Shown here: positions 37,962 through 46,960 of the stretch, in pieces | Layout: every line of letters begins with the position of its first letter | Numbering within the stretch: position 1 is the stretch's first letter | IMG/VR virus record: IMGVR_UViG_3300042881_004206 | Reading direction: 5' to 3' (one strand) | Length of the DNA stretch: 64,000 nt | Source: a virus | Lineage: Duplodnaviria; Caudoviricetes | Position numbers and translations under genes: made by a program | Notes under the pieces: model-generated | What the model was told of the DNA's origin: nothing | The model's database searches: none | Seen by the model: only the letters and a program-made list of their open reading frames with translations

Positions 37962-38177
37962 ATGACTTCACAATGTTATGAATCTGGTGACAGAAAAGCA
38001 ACAGTCAATTTGATTGAATCGAACTGGGACTCCCGACACAGTAAATGGGAGGTTACTTTCTTCATTAGAGGTCGAATTATTGAAAAACGCACGGTTACAT
38101 CATTTGATCAAGCTGAAATTGTAGCTGAAACTTTCGTTGAAGGATTTGATGCAAGTAAGGTGTTGTTAAATGAATAA
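37962..38177 (+). CDS. Hypothetical protein
   Basis: GAGG RBS; 71 aa. Confidence 0.6.
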   Translation: MTSQCYESGDRKATVNLIESNWDSRHSKWEVTFFIRGRIIEKRTVTSFDQAEIVAETFVEGFDASKVLLNE

Positions 38178-38445
38178 TCAAGTGAAAGAAATCTTCTGTA
38201 TCACACAAGAAGAATGTGCCGAAGTCTCTCAAGCAATTTCCAAAGTTTTTAGATTTGGTATCGATTCTACTCATCCCATTACAAACAAAACGAATCAACA
38301 ATCATTAGAAGAAGAAGTTGGTGATTTACTGGCTATGATTGATATTATGGTTGAAAAGTGTGTTGTATCCGATACGAATATTAATGTTGCTCGAAAAGCG
38401 AAAAGAGAGAAGTTGAAAAAATGGTCCTCAATACAAGGACTTTAA
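38170..38445 (+). CDS. MazG-like NTP pyrophosphohydrolase
   Basis: QEECAEV..AISK, EEEVGDL. Confidence 0.8.
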   Translation: MNNQVKEIFCITQEECAEVSQAISKVFRFGIDSTHPITNKTNQQSLEEEVGDLLAMIDIMVEKCVVSDTNINVARKAKREKLKKWSSIQGL

Positions 38446-38473: not shown

Positions 38474-39460
38474 ATGAAAAAACTATTTGTGACACTACTG
38501 GCAGCATTTGCTGTTTCAGCACAAGCACAAGTGAATGGAGCAGGCGCAACATTTCCTGCACCATTGTACGCCAAGTGGGCTGATGCTTACAATAAAGAAA
38601 CTGGAATTAGAATTAATTATCAAAGTGTTGGCTCTGGCGCAGGTATTAAACAAATTGAAGGTCGCACTGTAGTATTTGGTGCGAGTGATATGCCATTGAC
38701 TGATGATAGACTCAAGACTATGGAAGTTATGCAATTTCCAACTGTAATTGGTGGAGTTGTTCCCGTAGTTAATTTGAAAACTGTACAGCCAGGACAAATG
38801 CGTTTGACTGGCACAGTTCTTGCCGACATTTATCTCGGTAAGATTACAAGATGGAATGATGCAGCAATTAAAGCTTTGAATCCTAATTTGAATCTTCCGG
38901 ACGAAACAATCATGCCAGTCCGTAGAGCTGACGGCTCAGGCACAACATTTATTTGGACAAATTATCTAAGTAAAGTTTCCAAAGATTGGAAAGAGCAAGT
39001 TGGTGAGGGCACGGCTGTAAACTGGAGAGTTGGTGCTGGTGGTAAAGGTAATGAAGGTGTAAGTGCATTGGTCCGCCAATTGCCAGGAAGTATTGGTTAT
39101 GTTGAGTATGCATATGTGAAACAAGCCAAGATGAATTGGGTTCAAGTTCAGAACCGTGAAGGTACATGGGTAACACCTGATGACCTAACATTCAAGGCTG
39201 CAGCTGCTGGTGCAGACTGGAATAAATCCTTCTATCAAATCCTGACCGACCAACCAGGAAAGAATAGCTGGCCAATTACCGGTGCAACTTTCATCATTAT
39301 GCCACTCAAGAGTTCTGATCCGGCAAAAGCACAAGAAGCCATCAAATTCTTCTTGTGGTCCTTTGAAAAGGGTGATAAAATGGCCGAAGAACTGGACTAT
39401 GTGCCCATGGCAGACAGTGTGATTCCAAAGATTAAGGCTGAGTTGGCAAAAATCAAATAA
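38474..39460 (+). CDS. pstS: Phosphate ABC transporter substrate-binding protein PstS
   Basis: Signal peptide; GAGATFPAPLY, YQSVGSGAG, FGASD, RADGSGTT, IGYVE, WPI. Confidence 0.97.
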   Translation: MKKLFVTLLAAFAVSAQAQVNGAGATFPAPLYAKWADAYNKETGIRINYQSVGSGAGIKQIEGRTVVFGASDMPLTDDRLKTMEVMQFPTVIGGVVPVVNLKTVQPGQMRLTGTVLADIYLGKITRWNDAAIKALNPNLNLPDETIMPVRRADGSGTTFIWTNYLSKVSKDWKEQVGEGTAVNWRVGAGGKGNEGVSALVRQLPGSIGYVEYAYVKQAKMNWVQVQNREGTWVTPDDLTFKAAAAGADWNKSFYQILTDQPGKNSWPITGATFIIMPLKSSDPAKAQEAIKFFLWSFEKGDKMAEELDYVPMADSVIPKIKAELAKIK

Positions 39461-39925: not shown

Positions 39926-39954
39926 GTGTTTTCAAGCGCTTCCGGAGCTCTCCA

Positions 39955-40146
39955 ATGGAATCCAATACATTGCACAATTTCTTGATGATTTCTCTACCCG
40001 CACTGAATCTTTTTAGTTTCGTCTTGGGAATGCTCTATACACTTTCATCAATTTCCACAATTGGCAATCCAAAGAGTTTGTGGTTGCAAGTTGTGGGTTA
40101 TTTTATTGTCGTTGCGCTTTATTTTTATTTGCAGGTGAACTTATGA
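39955..40146 (+). CDS. Small two-TM membrane protein
   Basis: Two hydrophobic segments. Confidence 0.5.
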   Translation: MESNTLHNFLMISLPALNLFSFVLGMLYTLSSISTIGNPKSLWLQVVGYFIVVALYFYLQVNL

Positions 40147-40678: not shown

Positions 40679-40854
40679 ATAGTCAGGAATCATGGGAGCT
40701 CCGAGAAAAAAATTTTAGGATTACGAAAAGTAAAAAATCGAAATCCTCTTGGAGGGGCTGGAAAAATAAAAAATTGGAAAAAAGAGTTTGACCTGGTGGA
40801 GCTTTTTTAGCTAACGCCGCTCCCCATGGCCCCGCATCCTCCATCCAATAGTCG

Positions 40855-40884: not shown

Positions 40885-41109
40885 TCAGCCTTGCCAGCGA
40901 GCAGCTCGCAGCGTCTGCTCAAGGCGTTCCATGGCAGCCGGACTCTGAGCCGCTACGGACTGCAGCACGCTTCGAATGTATCCAGTGGCGTATGCATAAG
41001 CATCACCGCGGTCGCTGGAATACTTTTCGCCTTTGGCCTTGACCAATTCCACCAGCTCATCGGTCAGCTTGTCTGCCAACTCATAGCGCTTATCGTATGC
41101 CTTGCTCAT
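40885..41109 (-). CDS. Early hypothetical protein
   Basis: AAGGA RBS, own promoter, downstream terminator; YATGYIRS motif. Confidence 0.7.
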   Translation of the reverse strand: MSKAYDKRYELADKLTDELVELVKAKGEKYSSDRGDAYAYATGYIRSVLQSVAAQSPAAMERLEQTLRAARWQG

Positions 41110-41145
41110 TTGCTTTCCTTTGTTTTACTGTTTACGATGGAATGC

Positions 41146-41173
41146 AGTGTACCAGAACCAAGGAGGATGGCAA
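41146..41173 (-). promoter_or_regulatory. sigma70-type early promoter
   Basis: TTGCCA-16-TACACT. Confidence 0.7.
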
Positions 41174-41241
41174 CCATCCATGGAATACTTGACCTTTCCG
41201 GTGGTTCTTCGGTGGCTGGTTGCCTTGGAGTCGGGTTTGTG

Positions 41242-41454
41242 TTAGGCTGCATCGGTTAGGTCAGCAGTGGTTAGATTGAGCTCACGCATGAGCTTCCGGA
41301 CAGCCTTGGCGCCTTCAGCTTTCCGCTTTTCGGCAGCCTTGGCGGCTTGCACAGCAGCCTTGGCAGCGAGCAGTGCATCCAGAGCCGTGTCCAATTCCGA
41401 CTTAATGGCAGAATTAATGGAGTCTAATTGGGTTTGAAGAGCTTCGGTGGACAT
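41242..41454 (-). CDS. Ala/Lys-rich coiled-coil hypothetical protein
   Basis: Start re-called at ATG 41454 (AAGG RBS). Confidence 0.6.
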   Translation of the reverse strand: MSTEALQTQLDSINSAIKSELDTALDALLAAKAAVQAAKAAEKRKAEGAKAVRKLMRELNLTTADLTDAA

Positions 41455-41465
41455 AATATTACCTT

Positions 41466-41561
41466 TCAAAGGGGGAAGAAAAACGGAACAAAGGGAAGCG
41501 CTACTGCCAAAGCAAGGCCAATAGCACCGAGATAATCGGAAAAAGTGGTGGTTTGATTCAT
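41466..41561 (-). CDS. 31-aa membrane peptide
   Basis: Manual translation MNQTTTFSDYLGAIGLALAVALPFVPFFFPL; ATGA coupling to upstream gene. Confidence 0.45.
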   Translation of the reverse strand: MNQTTTFSDYLGAIGLALAVALPFVPFFFPL

Positions 41562-41665
41562 TTCATCAGCTCAATAATTGCGATAATTGCAAAGCCGAGA
41601 CTGATACCAGTGGCGACAGAAGCCAGGAGGAACAGCGTTTCATTGGTTTGGTACTTTTCGTTCAT
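41558..41665 (-). CDS. 35-aa membrane peptide
   Basis: Manual translation MNEKYQTNETLFLLASVATGISLGFAIIAIIELMK; AAGGA RBS and own promoter. Confidence 0.55.
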   Translation of the reverse strand: MNEKYQTNETLFLLASVATGISLGFAIIAIIELMK

Positions 41666-41693
41666 TTGGTTTCCTTATCAATCTATGAAAGCA

Positions 41694-41721
41694 AGTATAC
41701 CAGAAGTGGACGGATTGTCAA
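41694..41721 (-). promoter_or_regulatory. sigma70-type early promoter
   Basis: TTGACA-16-TATACT. Confidence 0.8.
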
Positions 41722-41749
41722 GCGTTATTGGAAAAGTCGACCGGATTGG

Positions 41750-41935
41750 TCAGCCTTTCGCATGGACCAGACCAGCATCCCGGAGACCAATGGCTTTCCG
41801 ACCAAGGTTTGCCACCGACCATTTTGCACCGGTAATCCAGGTTTTCTCGGACTGGCGCGGCCTGCGTGGCTTGAATACTGTAACCAATACTCCATCGGCA
41901 TTGGTATATTGTGAAAGTATATTAGATTTAGCCAT
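41750..41935 (-). CDS. Basic hypothetical protein
   Basis: MAKSNILSQY..GVLVTVFKPRRPR; GAGG RBS. Confidence 0.6.
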   Translation of the reverse strand: MAKSNILSQYTNADGVLVTVFKPRRPRQSEKTWITGAKWSVANLGRKAIGLRDAGLVHAKG

Positions 41936-42077
41936 TAGTAACCTCTGAAAGAAAAGCACGGAGATTTTCTTCGGGAATATTGCTGAGCAATTCGACAATA
42001 GCGGTCAAATCACCACGGTCAATATCTTCCACAATTTGGTCAATAACCATATCCATCAAATCAGTAAATTCAGCCAT
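41928..42077 (-). CDS. 49-aa acidic hypothetical protein
   Basis: Manual translation MAEFTDLMDMVIDQIVEDIDRGDLTAIVELLSNIPEENLRAFLSEVTNG; TAATG coupling. Confidence 0.65.
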   Translation of the reverse strand: MAEFTDLMDMVIDQIVEDIDRGDLTAIVELLSNIPEENLRAFLSEVTNG

Positions 42078-42289
42078 TATTCTTCCTCGGTTTCTTCTTC
42101 AAAATGCTCGAGCAATTCGTCCCAATTAATAGCGGTGATATTAATTTGGTCCTTCAGAAAACCATTCGGCATGGCATCATATTGCTCCTCGATCATATCA
42201 CGGATGAAATGCACATCCTCACGGGATTCTGGATTATACCAGACATTTACCGACCAGGTTTCATAATTGGACCAACCGTTGTAGCTCAT
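42077..42289 (-). CDS. Hypothetical protein of the YNGW.NYETW family
   Basis: Start re-called at ATG 42289 (AAGGA RBS); MSYNGWSNYETW..INW.EL. Confidence 0.75.
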   Translation of the reverse strand: MSYNGWSNYETWSVNVWYNPESREDVHFIRDMIEEQYDAMPNGFLKDQINITAINWDELLEHFEEETEEE

Positions 42290-42317
42290 TTGCTTTCCTT
42301 TGTTTACGATGGAATAC

Positions 42318-42345
42318 AGTATACCAGAAGTGGTAGGAATGTCAA
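42318..42345 (-). promoter_or_regulatory. sigma70-type early promoter
   Basis: TTGACA-16-TATACT. Confidence 0.8.
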
Positions 42346-42369
42346 GCGGTAGTTGACCGTTCCGGTATG

Positions 42370-42507
42370 TTATTTGCCCTGGGGCTTGGCGGCTTGCTGA
42401 ATGGCAACCTCCGATGTTAAAATCAAGCGGTCCAGGGCCTGAGCCATGGGGGTCAAGCCAATATTGGCAGCCACAATCCCGAAAATGAAGCCTAGAATGA
42501 ATCGCAT
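42370..42507 (-). CDS. 45-aa membrane peptide
   Basis: Manual translation MRFILGFIFGIVAANIGLTPMAQALDRLILTSEVAIQQAAKPQGK; own promoter. Confidence 0.55.
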   Translation of the reverse strand: MRFILGFIFGIVAANIGLTPMAQALDRLILTSEVAIQQAAKPQGK

Positions 42508-42533
42508 TGCTTTGTCCGTTTGTCAATGTTTGG

Positions 42534-42635
42534 ACTGTACCAGAACCACAGAGGATGGCAAGTTGCACAAAAGCAACACTACAGGCCGGTCAACTATTGC
42601 ATGTGGCTTGCCTTGGGCTCTCGGAGTGGTATAAT
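42534..42635. promoter_or_regulatory. Divergent promoter pair around a GTTG-N8-CAAC box
   Basis: Leftward TTGCCA-16-TACAGT (42561-42534); box GTTGCACAAAAGCAAC (42562-42577); rightward TTGCCT-16-TATAAT (42608-42635). Confidence 0.7.
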
Positions 42636-42673
42636 GGCTTCATAGCAATCGGAGAAGCCGGAGCTCTAATCCA
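42633..42673 (+). repeat. 41-bp direct repeat, copy 1 (promoter-proximal non-coding element)
   Basis: AATGGCTTCATAGCAATCGGAGAAGCCGGAGCTCTAATCCA; 40/41 identical to copy 2. Confidence 0.9.
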
Positions 42674-42740
42674 GACCTGCGCGTTGGATCCACGGCTATC
42701 AGTCCTGCGCCGGCGATTAGAATTTCCAATGGTCAGACGC

Positions 42741-42768
42741 TTGCCATTTCCACTGGTTCTGTCACAAT
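42741..42768 (+). promoter_or_regulatory. sigma70-type promoter
   Basis: TTGCCA-16-CACAAT. Confidence 0.55.
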
Positions 42769-42775
42769 GCAAAGC

Positions 42776-43132
42776 ATGGAAACACAATACACCTTCAGCG
42801 ATGACCTGGTCTCTGACCTCCACAAGGACGCCTATGGCTTCCGCCCCAGCGAGTCCTTCTGGAGAACCTGGGAAACCTCCACCGATGCCGAAAAGCAGTC
42901 GGAGTGGGACCGCTTGGCTGCTCATATGCAGCTGGCCATGGAACAGGAGGCGGCCAACCACCGGACCTGTATCGCACGGCTGGAGGACAGGATTGCCCAG
43001 CTGATCCAATGCGGCGCCAAGGACCGTGCCATGGCCATCCGTTGGTTGGATGAGGCGTACCAGACCCATGGCGACACCGAATTCCTGGAGTGGAACCTCG
43101 GCGTACCTTTCGGTTACCTGCGGAAGCCCTAA
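42776..43132 (+). CDS. Hypothetical protein, possibly leaderless
   Basis: SDLHKDAYGFRP motif ... EW.LG.PFGY; ATG 42776 is 7 nt after the -10. Confidence 0.75.
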   Translation: METQYTFSDDLVSDLHKDAYGFRPSESFWRTWETSTDAEKQSEWDRLAAHMQLAMEQEAANHRTCIARLEDRIAQLIQCGAKDRAMAIRWLDEAYQTHGDTEFLEWNLGVPFGYLRKP

Positions 43133-43176
43133 GCACTACCTATAGTGCTTGCTATGCGAAAACCTCGAGGATTTTG

Positions 43177-43238
43177 GTTGTTTTTTAGCAACGGACACTA
43201 GGGGTAGTGCTTGCCATTTTCCGTGGATCGCTTAGAAT
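43177..43238 (+). promoter_or_regulatory. GTTG-N8-CAAC box plus sigma70 promoter
   Basis: GTTGTTTTTTAGCAAC; TTGCCA-16-TAGAAT. Confidence 0.7.
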
Positions 43239-43276
43239 GGCTTCATAGCAATCGGAAAAGCCGGAGCTCTAATCCA
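43236..43276 (+). repeat. 41-bp direct repeat, copy 2
   Basis: AATGGCTTCATAGCAATCGGAAAAGCCGGAGCTCTAATCCA. Confidence 0.9.
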
Positions 43277-43393
43277 CCCCTGCCTGCTATATGTTTCCGG
43301 CCGCGCACGTTTGGACCATTATATCATACGGGAACGGACAATGGCAACCAGCCACCCAATACCCAGTAAACCGGTCAACATTTCACACAGCGC

Positions 43394-43421
43394 TTGACAA
43401 ACCCACCAGAACCTGTACAGT
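43394..43421 (+). promoter_or_regulatory. sigma70-type promoter
   Basis: TTGACA-16-TACAGT. Confidence 0.6.
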
Positions 43422-43454
43422 CCGACCATTGAAATTCAACAGCGGAGATATTCC

Positions 43455-43637
43455 ATGGATATTCAAACGGCGCAACATATTATGGGAAAATTCAGTATTA
43501 ACCATAATACTGAGACATTTATGGAAACCATTGAATTAATGGACCATTTTCTGCAGCGTGATACTCTGACGGATATTGAAAAGCAAGCATATTTTCTGAT
43601 TATTGACGAATATGCTGCATATAATACTGCGGAATAA
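43455..43637 (+). CDS. Hypothetical protein
   Basis: GGAG RBS and promoter. Confidence 0.6.
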   Translation: MDIQTAQHIMGKFSINHNTETFMETIELMDHFLQRDTLTDIEKQAYFLIIDEYAAYNTAE

Positions 43638-43776
43638 TTGAAAAACCGCAGAAAATAAATCAAATACCTTCGCGGACAGAAACTAAGTCGGATACTCTCC
43701 AAAATATCCACGATATTCTGCGAAAACCCACGCGACACAATATTGCACTTTTTGACACAATTTGACACAATAAATC

Positions 43777-46568: not shown

Positions 46569-46916
46569 ATGATCCGTGCACCATTTTACGCACAATTATA
46601 TCCAATTCTATATGAAAAGACCTTAGGGTATGGTTATACCTTGGCCCTCCATGGTACTCTCCAAAGGGATTTGGATGTTATTGCTGTACCATGGGAAGAA
46701 AATGTAAGTGAACCAATACATTTAATCCGTGCATTGGAAAAAGTATCTGGTGGGCATTGTGTGCCTAGAATCGATAGGAATGGTCTGGTGATTGGTCCAT
46801 ACGATCCTCTACCAAAACCACACGGTCGGTTGGCATGGATTATTGCACTCTCCAACGCTGGTCCTAACGGTCCATACATCGATATTTCTGTTGCACCAAA
46901 ACAACAAAATAGTTGA
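46569..46916 (+). CDS. Hypothetical protein
   Basis: GY.LALHG.L.RDLD.IAVPW ... KPHGRLAW motif. Confidence 0.7.
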   Translation: MIRAPFYAQLYPILYEKTLGYGYTLALHGTLQRDLDVIAVPWEENVSEPIHLIRALEKVSGGHCVPRIDRNGLVIGPYDPLPKPHGRLAWIIALSNAGPNGPYIDISVAPKQQNS

Positions 46917-46960
46917 CCGGTTTGGTCGACATTTGCCATTTCCGCGGATGCCTGTATACT
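46890..46960 (+). promoter_or_regulatory. GTTG-N8-CAAC box, GACC-N5-GGTC palindrome and sigma70 promoter
   Basis: GTTGCACCAAAACAAC; GTTGACC-GGTTT-GGTCGAC; TTGCCA-16-TATACT. Confidence 0.7.

Follow-up and report, generated by a model that had tools for sequence, protein, structure and literature searches.

Two copies of a short block lie behind two early-type promoters of a T4-like lake phage, and across the phage population either position may carry this block or another initial transcribed sequence. We hold with moderate confidence that the block, here called module A, is a swappable leader in PeSL-like early promoter cassettes, acting in cis, and not a pseudoknotted stand-alone small RNA. 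A PeSL (promoter-early stem-loop cassette) joins a strong sigma70-like early promoter to stem-loops; the composite motifs flank ORFans and act as patches where homologous recombination takes place. This cassette behaviour has been described in RB49/phi1, T4/PST and KVP40/nt-1, and homology of less than 50 bp suffices for recombination in T4 (Arbiol et al. 2010, PMC2839356; Comeau et al. 2014, PMC4122927).

A repeated non-coding block behind two promoters

The source record is an IMG/VR virus of 156.6 kb, about 92% complete, of which the 64,000-nt stretch analysed here (the window) is a part. The phage is T4-like, with a DNA polymerase (phrog_262), a ribonucleotide reductase (RNR) and a CobS-type/cobalt chelatase protein, and it was found in many lake-water metagenomes, from about 19 studies. 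Its genome is mostly about 35% GC and transcribed rightward. An island at 40.8-43.5 kb has 48-50% GC, as against about 35% elsewhere, and is made up of very small early-type genes, each with its own sigma70-type promoter, in a leftward block (40885-42568) and a series of rightward genes from 42608 onward. Consensus promoters with related spacers crowd the island, with 26 sites found in the 39-46 kb region and 17 expected. The short leaders of the neighbouring cassettes start at CAT and continue with a GGA-rich Shine-Dalgarno sequence and then ATG. When the region 40.7-43.7 kb was compared by BLAST with 50,697 phage records there were zero matches. The 118-aa protein encoded between the two copies has 125 homologues, and the 60-aa protein downstream has no relative in IMG/VR. 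The features of the region are collected in the table.

Features of positions 42534-43637 of the window
Feature	Position	Strand	Basis or remark
Leftward early promoter, TTGCCA-16-TACAGT	42534..42561	-	Promoter scan; back to back with the first rightward promoter
Small stem-loop GTTGC-N6-GCAAC upstream of the locus-1 promoter	42562..42577	+	Putative; read from the sequence
Locus-1 promoter, TTGCCT-16-TATAAT, TG-extended	42608..42635	+	Promoter scan
Locus-1 discriminator GGCTTC	42636-42641	+	
Module A copy 1, predicted +1 (A42642) to CCTGC	42642..42680	+	Conserved non-coding block
Small hairpin with variable loop in module A copy 1	42644-42665	+	
Rest of leader 1, ORF-free	42681..42740	+	Middle fast-evolving, 64% identity to L018
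Proximal promoter, TTGCCA-16-CACAAT, TG-extended	42741..42768	+	Promoter scan; CATAAT in relatives
118-aa gene, phrog_21968	42776..43132	+	Flanked by both repeat copies
Post-gene stem-loop region	43131..43212	+	Not called a terminator by the scan
Locus-2 promoter, TTGCCA-16-TAGAAT	43211..43238	+	Promoter scan
Module A copy 2, from predicted +1 (A43245)	43245..43283	+	Repeat match
Antisense promoter, TTGCCA-18-TATAAT, TG-extended, strong	43318..43347	-	Promoter scan; converges on copy 2
Proximal promoter of the 60-aa gene, TTGACA-16-TACAGT	43394..43421	+	Promoter scan
60-aa gene with GGAG ribosome-binding site, downstream of locus 2	43455..43637	+	

An earlier note on this DNA had proposed that two promoters are each followed by the same 41-mer, and both promoters were recovered at these positions by the promoter scan. 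The repeat itself is real: 40 of 41 positions are identical between 42633-42673 and 43236-43276, and a longer alignment (42630-42680 with 43233-43283) keeps 47 of 51. The 38-mer at 42636-42673 recurs at 43239-43276 with one mismatch, where shuffled sequences would be expected to give no match at all. Both copies stand directly behind sigma70-type promoters, in the same orientation and 603 bp apart; they are the only two in the whole 156.6 kb genome, and R1, a covariance model of module A, gave no further copy in the window. The promoters at 42608, 43211 and 43347(-) match the consensus at 10-11 of 12 positions and have TG extensions. The leftward promoter that faces the locus-1 promoter is the strand-switch point of the island, and a GTTG..CAAC element resembling the stem-loop next to it occurs upstream of copy 2, at 43177-43193.

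The predicted transcription starts were obtained by counting 7 nt from the -10 hexamers, so that GGCTTC would be the discriminator and the transcripts would begin with AUAGCAAUCGG. Thus the 41-mer comprises the AAT of the -10 box, the discriminator and the first 32 predicted transcribed bases, and module A extends beyond it, to about 39 transcribed bases. The copies were noted to carry GGAG motifs that lack a start codon, and indeed no ATG, GTG or TTG is found at a usable distance; nor is there a credible ORF between the copies and the next promoters (42741 and 43394). Related GGAGCTC cores had been pointed out at two more places. The one at 39942 shares a 10-mer, CCGGAGCTCT, with the repeat and is the ribosome-binding site of ORF 39955, whereas the one at 40695 shares GGAGCTC alone, which is at chance level.

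Relatives were collected as the contigs of the closest homologues of the 118-aa protein and by scanning metagenomes and IMG/VR for sequence patterns. Of the hits that did not come from protein-based searches, most were obtained with a pattern that demanded the conserved blocks, and the apparent conservation of module A is therefore biased. Module A was found in 12 distinct related metagenomic contexts, and in all 12 it starts exactly at the predicted +1, 7 nt past the -10 hexamer, although (as far as the promoters ahead of it go) six different spacer/discriminator sequences are represented and a single conserved C precedes the block. Its layout is an 11-nt block, a variable linker of 3-7 nt, CCGGAGCTCTAATCC, 2-3 variable bases and CCTGC. 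Without exception, 45-400 ORF-free bases separate it from another promoter downstream, and it fronts at least five different downstream sequences. It also stands behind unrelated promoters at the strand switch of the related contigs L023 and L026, the latter a complete 177 kb genome with one copy. Exact-pattern scans of IMG/VR gave first no match and then one, and the same kind of scan of 185,579 prokaryote genomes gave none.

The linker of module A exhibits indels of 1 and 2 nt even among near-identical phages, which shows that the module is not read as protein. The codon at +1 is ATA in module A and ACG in module C (see below), and in L011 the frame from +1 meets a stop after 28 codons. Coding readings from ATA, ACG or ATG at +1, including frames of 82 aa and 51 codons, were rejected on account of indels, missing starts and non-conserved frames, as were two minus-strand frames of 21 and 29 aa; a leader peptide or leaderless ORF lacks both a start codon and a conserved frame. 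No relative has a gene start behind module A, contrary to the scenario of a promoter cassette whose gene was recently deleted, which had been put forward as what would refute the earlier proposal. Since a start codon is missing, indels break the frame, and the ORF-free stretch runs up to another promoter, module A is a non-coding module, predicted to be transcribed, and not the stump of a recent deletion.

Exchange of modules and cassettes around the 118-aa gene

The two copies occupy two slots, one ahead of the 118-aa gene at the strand switch (locus 1) and one behind the gene (locus 2). In the phage population each slot holds one of at least three initial transcribed sequences, modules A, B and C; a fourth, module D, was seen in relatives. 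Module A fills both slots in the window, L011 and L012. It is combined with C at locus 2 in L010 and L013-L017, and with B at locus 2 in L018. In L022 and L025 locus 1 has B and locus 2 has A, and in L031 locus 1 has C and locus 2 has A. Apart from self-matches, R1 scored best against the C modules that L010 and L013 carry at locus 2 (E 2.3), which hints weakly that A and C may be diverged homologues.

How the modules are exchanged can be read from close relatives. Comparison of the window with L010 over 42589-43615 in bins of 40 nt gives 97-100% identity throughout, except for one 47-bp patch, 43231-43277, where near-identical relatives have an unrelated or very diverged module instead. The left junction of the patch lies in the shared promoter and the right one at the shared CC(C)TGCCTGC. 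A swap confined to 47 bp in a near-identical background indicates that the duplication arose by recombinational module exchange, and from these alignments the presence of A in both slots of the window is attributed to homologous recombination, as module exchange or gene conversion. In L011 the locus-2 copy differs from the resident locus-1 copy by one substitution and one indel and equals the copy in the unrelated context of L023, so the donor was probably another phage, not the resident copy.

Whole gene cassettes come and go in the same manner. A leaderless gene of 57 aa sits exactly between direct repeats of an 18-bp promoter core, GCTTGCCATTTCCACTGG; the cassette is carried by L013-16, L018-20 and L024 and is missing from the window, L010-12 and L017. 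The suggestion that the repeats could delete or shuffle the gene that they flank is thus well founded in kind, as relatives gain, lose and swap cassettes at such repeats, but no variant that has lost the 118-aa gene through this repeat pair was seen among them. In contigs of one DNA run no joint between the two copies was found, and such contigs cannot show rare forms. Contigs of relatives from RNA libraries cover 42739-43350 and stop at the borders of the repeats, which is usual for assembly graphs; they may stem from read-through RNA or from DNA, and are silent on starts, ends and strand.

The surroundings of the two slots differ in detail. In leader 1 the 3' portion is a conserved part, GAATTTCCAATGG, which adjoins the 42741 promoter, and from the placement of this promoter we infer a start at the ATG of the 118-aa gene, that is, a predicted leaderless mRNA. 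The region behind the gene holds an 8-bp hairpin (43131-43150) and a decayed terminator-like stretch (43158-43186); at the equivalent site L018 has an intact 8-bp stem plus a U-run. Another hairpin (43196-43209) abuts the -35 box of the locus-2 promoter. At locus 2, the predicted transcripts from 43347(-), with a start expected near 43311, and from the locus-2 promoter overlap by about 67 nt. All relatives keep the hexamers of this antisense promoter, with at least four different spacer sequences between them, and this pattern makes transcriptional interference or an antisense pair from the predicted converging promoter likely. A type I toxin-antitoxin system at these convergent promoters was considered and rejected, there being no conserved small hydrophobic ORF.

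Structure and constraint of the predicted RNA

According to the earlier note, both copies keep CCTGC, GCTAT and CCGGC in the same order, and copy 1 also has the complements TCTAATC/GATTAGA and ATCCA/TGGAT. All of these strings are present as described. The a-b-a'-b' pseudoknot built on them did not hold up: across nine distinct locus-1 leaders, none of the 17 pairs shows a change on both sides. Helix a/a' is invariant, and b/b' and TCTAATC/GATTAGA vary solely by losing pairs. The downstream "partner" CCTGC is kept in L010, L013 and L017 despite their replaced 5' module, and among these three only L010 keeps GCTAT and CCGGC unchanged, without the 5' partners of module A; at least in L010, therefore, pairing with module A is not what maintains the strings. 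Because the single leader of L026 can be aligned to the downstream portions of both window copies, the collinear CCTGC, GCTAT and CCGGC are best explained as residual homology of two diverged paralogous leaders, left over from common descent.

Nor do the leaders look like discrete structured RNAs. Compared with dinucleotide shuffles, the fold energies of the full leaders are no better (z +0.79 and +1.86); for the module on its own (40 nt) z is about 0, and its variants have different minimum-energy folds. A terminator scan found none that would give the leaders a defined 3' end, and the hairpins at 42562-42577, 43131-43150, 43196-43209 and 42644-42665 were not called. An Rfam scan of 38-48 kb with E values up to 10 placed nothing on the element, the best hits (E 0.36-3) being to unrelated eukaryotic families elsewhere. 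Sequences complementary to module A in the phage's own genome are chance 10-mers only, none longer than 10 nt. What stands of the proposed RNA family with a constant 5' part and a variable body is thus a non-coding, promoter-attached 5' block in front of different sequences; the structured, discrete small RNA is not borne out, given the shuffles and the terminator scan.

The consensus fold of module A is a small hairpin at transcript positions 3-24 (AGC-AA-UCGG, loop, CCGG-A-GCU), which is weak, about -5.8 kcal/mol with z about 0. All length variation of the hairpin falls in its loop. Five of the seven pairs are invariant, one is broken (L018) and one has changed from G-C to A-U (L031); these two compensatory substitutions are the only ones of L031 in the first 31 nt. 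As a structural signal the change is suggestive: the covariation is a single event in one sequence, and 48 of 500 shuffles match its score. A double-stranded DNA operator for a dimeric protein was judged unlikely, as the spacing of the inverted half-blocks varies by 1-4 bp among variants. Two further resemblances, an 8-nt complementarity between the tail and a conserved loop of 16S rRNA and a likeness of the initial transcribed bases to promoter N25 of T5, are at chance level and were set aside.

Identity to L018 amounts to 90% for module A, 89% for the promoter, 64% for the middle of the leader and 80% for synonymous third positions of the next gene, so that the excess conservation of the module over synonymous sites appears only modest in this comparison. 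In L031 the neighbouring protein has 63% amino acid identity, and module A is still about 87% identical with its hairpin kept. Taken as evidence for a function at the RNA level, the conservation is real but not strong, and the high identity could partly reflect recent lateral exchange instead of constraint.

Possible roles of module A and relation to known systems

In the cis reading that we favour, promoter, stem-loop and leader would form a PeSL-like regulatory cassette within a hyperplastic, GC-rich island of tiny early genes. The two slots flanking the 118-aa gene would be occupied across the population by interchangeable modules A, B and C, and the repeated promoter and leader sequences would serve as homology patches for the gain, loss and swapping of cassettes. 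The predicted RNA of module A would consist of two unpaired bases, the small hairpin with its length-variable loop and a conserved single-stranded, C-rich tail, and would form an untranslated 5' end with two GGAG motifs and no start codon. Because the hairpin lies 2 nt from the predicted 5' end and the GGAG motifs have no start codon, module A may work in cis on the early transcript, in promoter escape or in protection or handling of the 5' end. Against such a role speaks that the gene next to locus 1 is leaderless and offers read-through transcripts no ribosome-binding site; read-through from locus 1 could even occlude the promoters of leaderless genes. Against the fit to PeSLs, the stem-loops here were not called terminators, unlike those of classic PeSLs.

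As read-through from locus 1 cannot aid translation of the leaderless gene behind it, there is room for an RNA that acts in trans. Modules A, B, C and D could then be the 5' domains of a family of abundant early non-coding RNAs (regulators, decoys or anti-defence RNAs), with the slots as expression sites whose contents turn over under selection. We regard this as possible but unlikely. The conservation from +1 does persist across promoter and downstream contexts, alleles are swapped between otherwise near-identical genomes, one stem pair is compensatory and the conserved single-stranded tail could be a seed; no protein-retrieved two-slot lineage is without A in one slot or both, regardless of the gene that follows, but over five lineages this is not statistically meaningful. 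The failure to find a terminator or other predicted 3' end, folds better than shuffles, an Rfam family, an own-genome target above 10 nt or any match in the prokaryote genomes argues against it. The same low probability is given to a wider version, in which the slots express allelic, rapidly exchanged trans-acting early RNAs (decoys or regulators) or else the activating or primer transcript of an origin with DnaA boxes.

That origin component, taken by itself, is very unlikely. It would make the strand-switch promoter and its ORF-free transcript a replication origin or origin-like region into which gene cassettes have been inserted, the transcript serving for activation or as R-loop primer as at T4 oriF/oriG. 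Its attraction comes from relatives: in L026 about 250 ORF-free bases begin with module A and lead up to a cluster of five DnaA-box-like 9-mers, L005 has four such boxes in a 54-bp stretch downstream of a comparable ORF-free promoter, and both share a 28-nt motif (ACTAAGTYGGACTAATACC...) of which a remnant is found in the window at 43683-43700. The modules are also purine-rich at the RNA 5' end. In the window itself, however, no DnaA box within one mismatch of the consensus occurs at 42.5-44 kb, the monotonic cumulative GC skew has no turning point, and neither an unwinding element nor an initiator was identified. A neutral relic, rather doubtful in our estimate, would be what decay has left of a lost gene, namely its 5' UTR, ribosome-binding site and initial codons; it would have no function of its own, hitch-hike with a useful promoter and be homogenised by recombination. 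In appearance the block is close to the usual short leaders in nearby cassettes, its 3' half corresponds to the initiation region of ORF 39955 (CCGGAGCTCT, then AATCCA) minus seven ATG-containing bases, and conservation relative to L018 is near that of synonymous sites while the middle of leader 1 evolves fast. A relic is hard to reconcile with the lack of a gene start behind the block in any of the contexts (at least five), with about 87% conservation in L031 beside a protein at 63% and two stem changes that are compensatory, and with a left border that coincides with +1 although the spacers ahead of it are unrelated.

Among known systems, the PeSL cassette of T4-type phages comes closest. 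Shared with PeSLs are early promoters and stem-loops every 100-600 bp or so in a hyperplastic region of small orphan genes, and close relatives that differ by insertions, deletions and replacements bounded by repeats; the two copies flank a single gene, just as PeSLs flank ORFan192 of RB49. Unlike in PeSLs, about 40 nt of the repeat belong to the predicted transcript, where they form a conserved leader that lacks an ORF and has interchangeable alleles; there are many leaderless genes, the short stem-loops are not predicted to be terminators, and the sequence upstream of the -35 box is not AT-rich and has a box of the type CCGGTCAAC / GACC-N5-GGTC instead. An allelic leader of this kind, conserved and ORF-less, is a variant that the PeSL descriptions do not include.

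Other systems resemble module A in part. The nut sites of lambda and put sites of HK022 are RNA elements repeated behind two early promoters; a nut-type antitermination site has boxA and a boxB hairpin and goes with a cognate N-type protein. Here too the same short, predicted-transcribed element lies just behind two early promoters, which however face the same way, 603 bp apart. The small hairpin lies beside a boxA-like string (GCUCUAA, where the consensus is GCUCUUA), a resemblance only; unlike in nut, the string has no U-run and the hairpin is 5' of it, and no put-like two-stem structure was found at module A. The ompA 5' UTR and the cryIIIA STAB-SD exemplify 5'-terminal stabiliser hairpins and Shine-Dalgarno stabilisers that have no start codon. 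Module A is reminiscent of these in its GGAG motifs and in its hairpin, which starts 2 nt from the predicted 5' end, but at about -6 kcal/mol the hairpin is weak. Origins of the T4 oriF/oriG type consist of a promoter plus a non-coding transcript; the strong predicted promoter with an ORF-free transcript at the strand switch and the DnaA-box clusters just downstream in relatives are similar, whereas the boxes are degenerate in this genome and neither an unwinding element nor a skew signal was found.

With regard to the biology of these phages, the island offers, in uncultured lake phages, a clean natural case of early-region rebuilding in T4-type phages through recombination of promoter-plus-leader cassettes. 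It also serves as a caution that short collinear complements read as a pseudoknot can be mere residual homology between paralogous leaders. Module A is a short candidate for a cis- or trans-acting early RNA element, for which the covariance model R1 is available; if the trans-acting alternative were true, it would represent a new early-RNA family specific to uncultured freshwater T4-like phages. On the cassette reading that we prefer, the PeSL idea would be extended to a conserved, predicted-transcribed allelic module and to leaderless genes.

Antisense promoter and hairpins around the 118-aa gene

The promoter with the top score in the region (TTGCCA-18-TATAAT, with TG) lies on the minus strand and is directed toward the second copy of module A, the roughly 39-nt non-coding block that begins at a predicted +1. 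No ORF was found behind it. Its hexamers are kept in seven relatives' sequences (L010, L011, L013, L018, L022, L025 and L031) while the spacer varies; this pattern suggests that either an antisense transcript or transcriptional interference is favoured by selection. Behind the 118-aa gene, hairpins with the loops CCTA and GGGG flank the terminator region (43131-43212). Compared with the window, the order of these hairpins is reversed in L018 (1216-1305) and in RNA-library contigs, and the 8-bp terminator stem, intact in L018, is half deleted in the window.

Features in the window and in related sequences (positions without prefix refer to the window)
Feature	Position	Strand
Fourth promoter-attached ORF-free module	L005:9549-9600; L018:1517-1570
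CCGGTCAAC box	42586-42594; 43371-43379; 46912-46920 (inverted); also many relatives
Apparently leaderless gene starts	42741-42778; L013:1232-1290; L005:9887-9925; L003:361-400
ORF-free promoter region with DnaA-box-like cluster	L005:9516-9914; L026: about 3176-2750	reverse (L026)
PstS-like phosphate-binding gene	38474-39460
75-aa Ala/Lys-rich coiled-coil protein gene	41242-41469	minus
Antisense promoter	43318-43347	minus
63-aa membrane-protein ORF	39955-40146

A fourth module and the possible source of module A

A fourth module, ATTCGAAAGC..GACTGGG.TGCACACGGA.CCTGCA, is absent from the window and conserved between L005 and L018, which are otherwise distant relatives; the change from GGAU/AUCC to GGGU/ACCC within it looks compensatory. 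The 10-mer CCGGAGCTCT of module A was found again at 39942-39957 as the ribosome-binding site of the 63-aa ORF and, when seven ATG-containing bases are taken out, the following six bases also agree with module A. This likeness is a possible hint at the module's origin.

Neighbouring genes and DnaA-box-like clusters

The PstS-like gene is missing from L005, L006 and L009, where its flanks (38169-38445 and 39470 onward) abut, and it is, on this comparison, an auxiliary gene inserted in this genome. The 75-aa protein, kept in L003, L005 and L026, weakly matched the N-terminal oligomerisation domain of H-NS, with an E-value of 8e-4 that falls short of the Pfam cut-off. In L005 and L026 the strand-switch promoter, with its ORF-free downstream sequence, leads into clusters of DnaA-box-like 9-mers (four in 54 bp and five in 80 bp, respectively), preceded in both by a common 28-nt motif (ACTAAGTYGGACTAATACC...). 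At 43683-43776 of the window this motif is reduced to a remnant and the 9-mers are degenerate. The region could be origin-like or DnaA-titrating.

Upstream box and leaderless starts

Many promoters of the GC-rich early-gene island have CCGGTCAAC at 4-14 nt upstream of their -35 box. It belongs to a GACC-N5-GGTC-like palindrome and is a candidate operator or activator site common to the promoter cassettes. At the leaderless candidates the ATG stands 6-8 nt downstream of the -10 hexamer and a Shine-Dalgarno sequence is absent; this phage group thus appears to have several leaderless genes.
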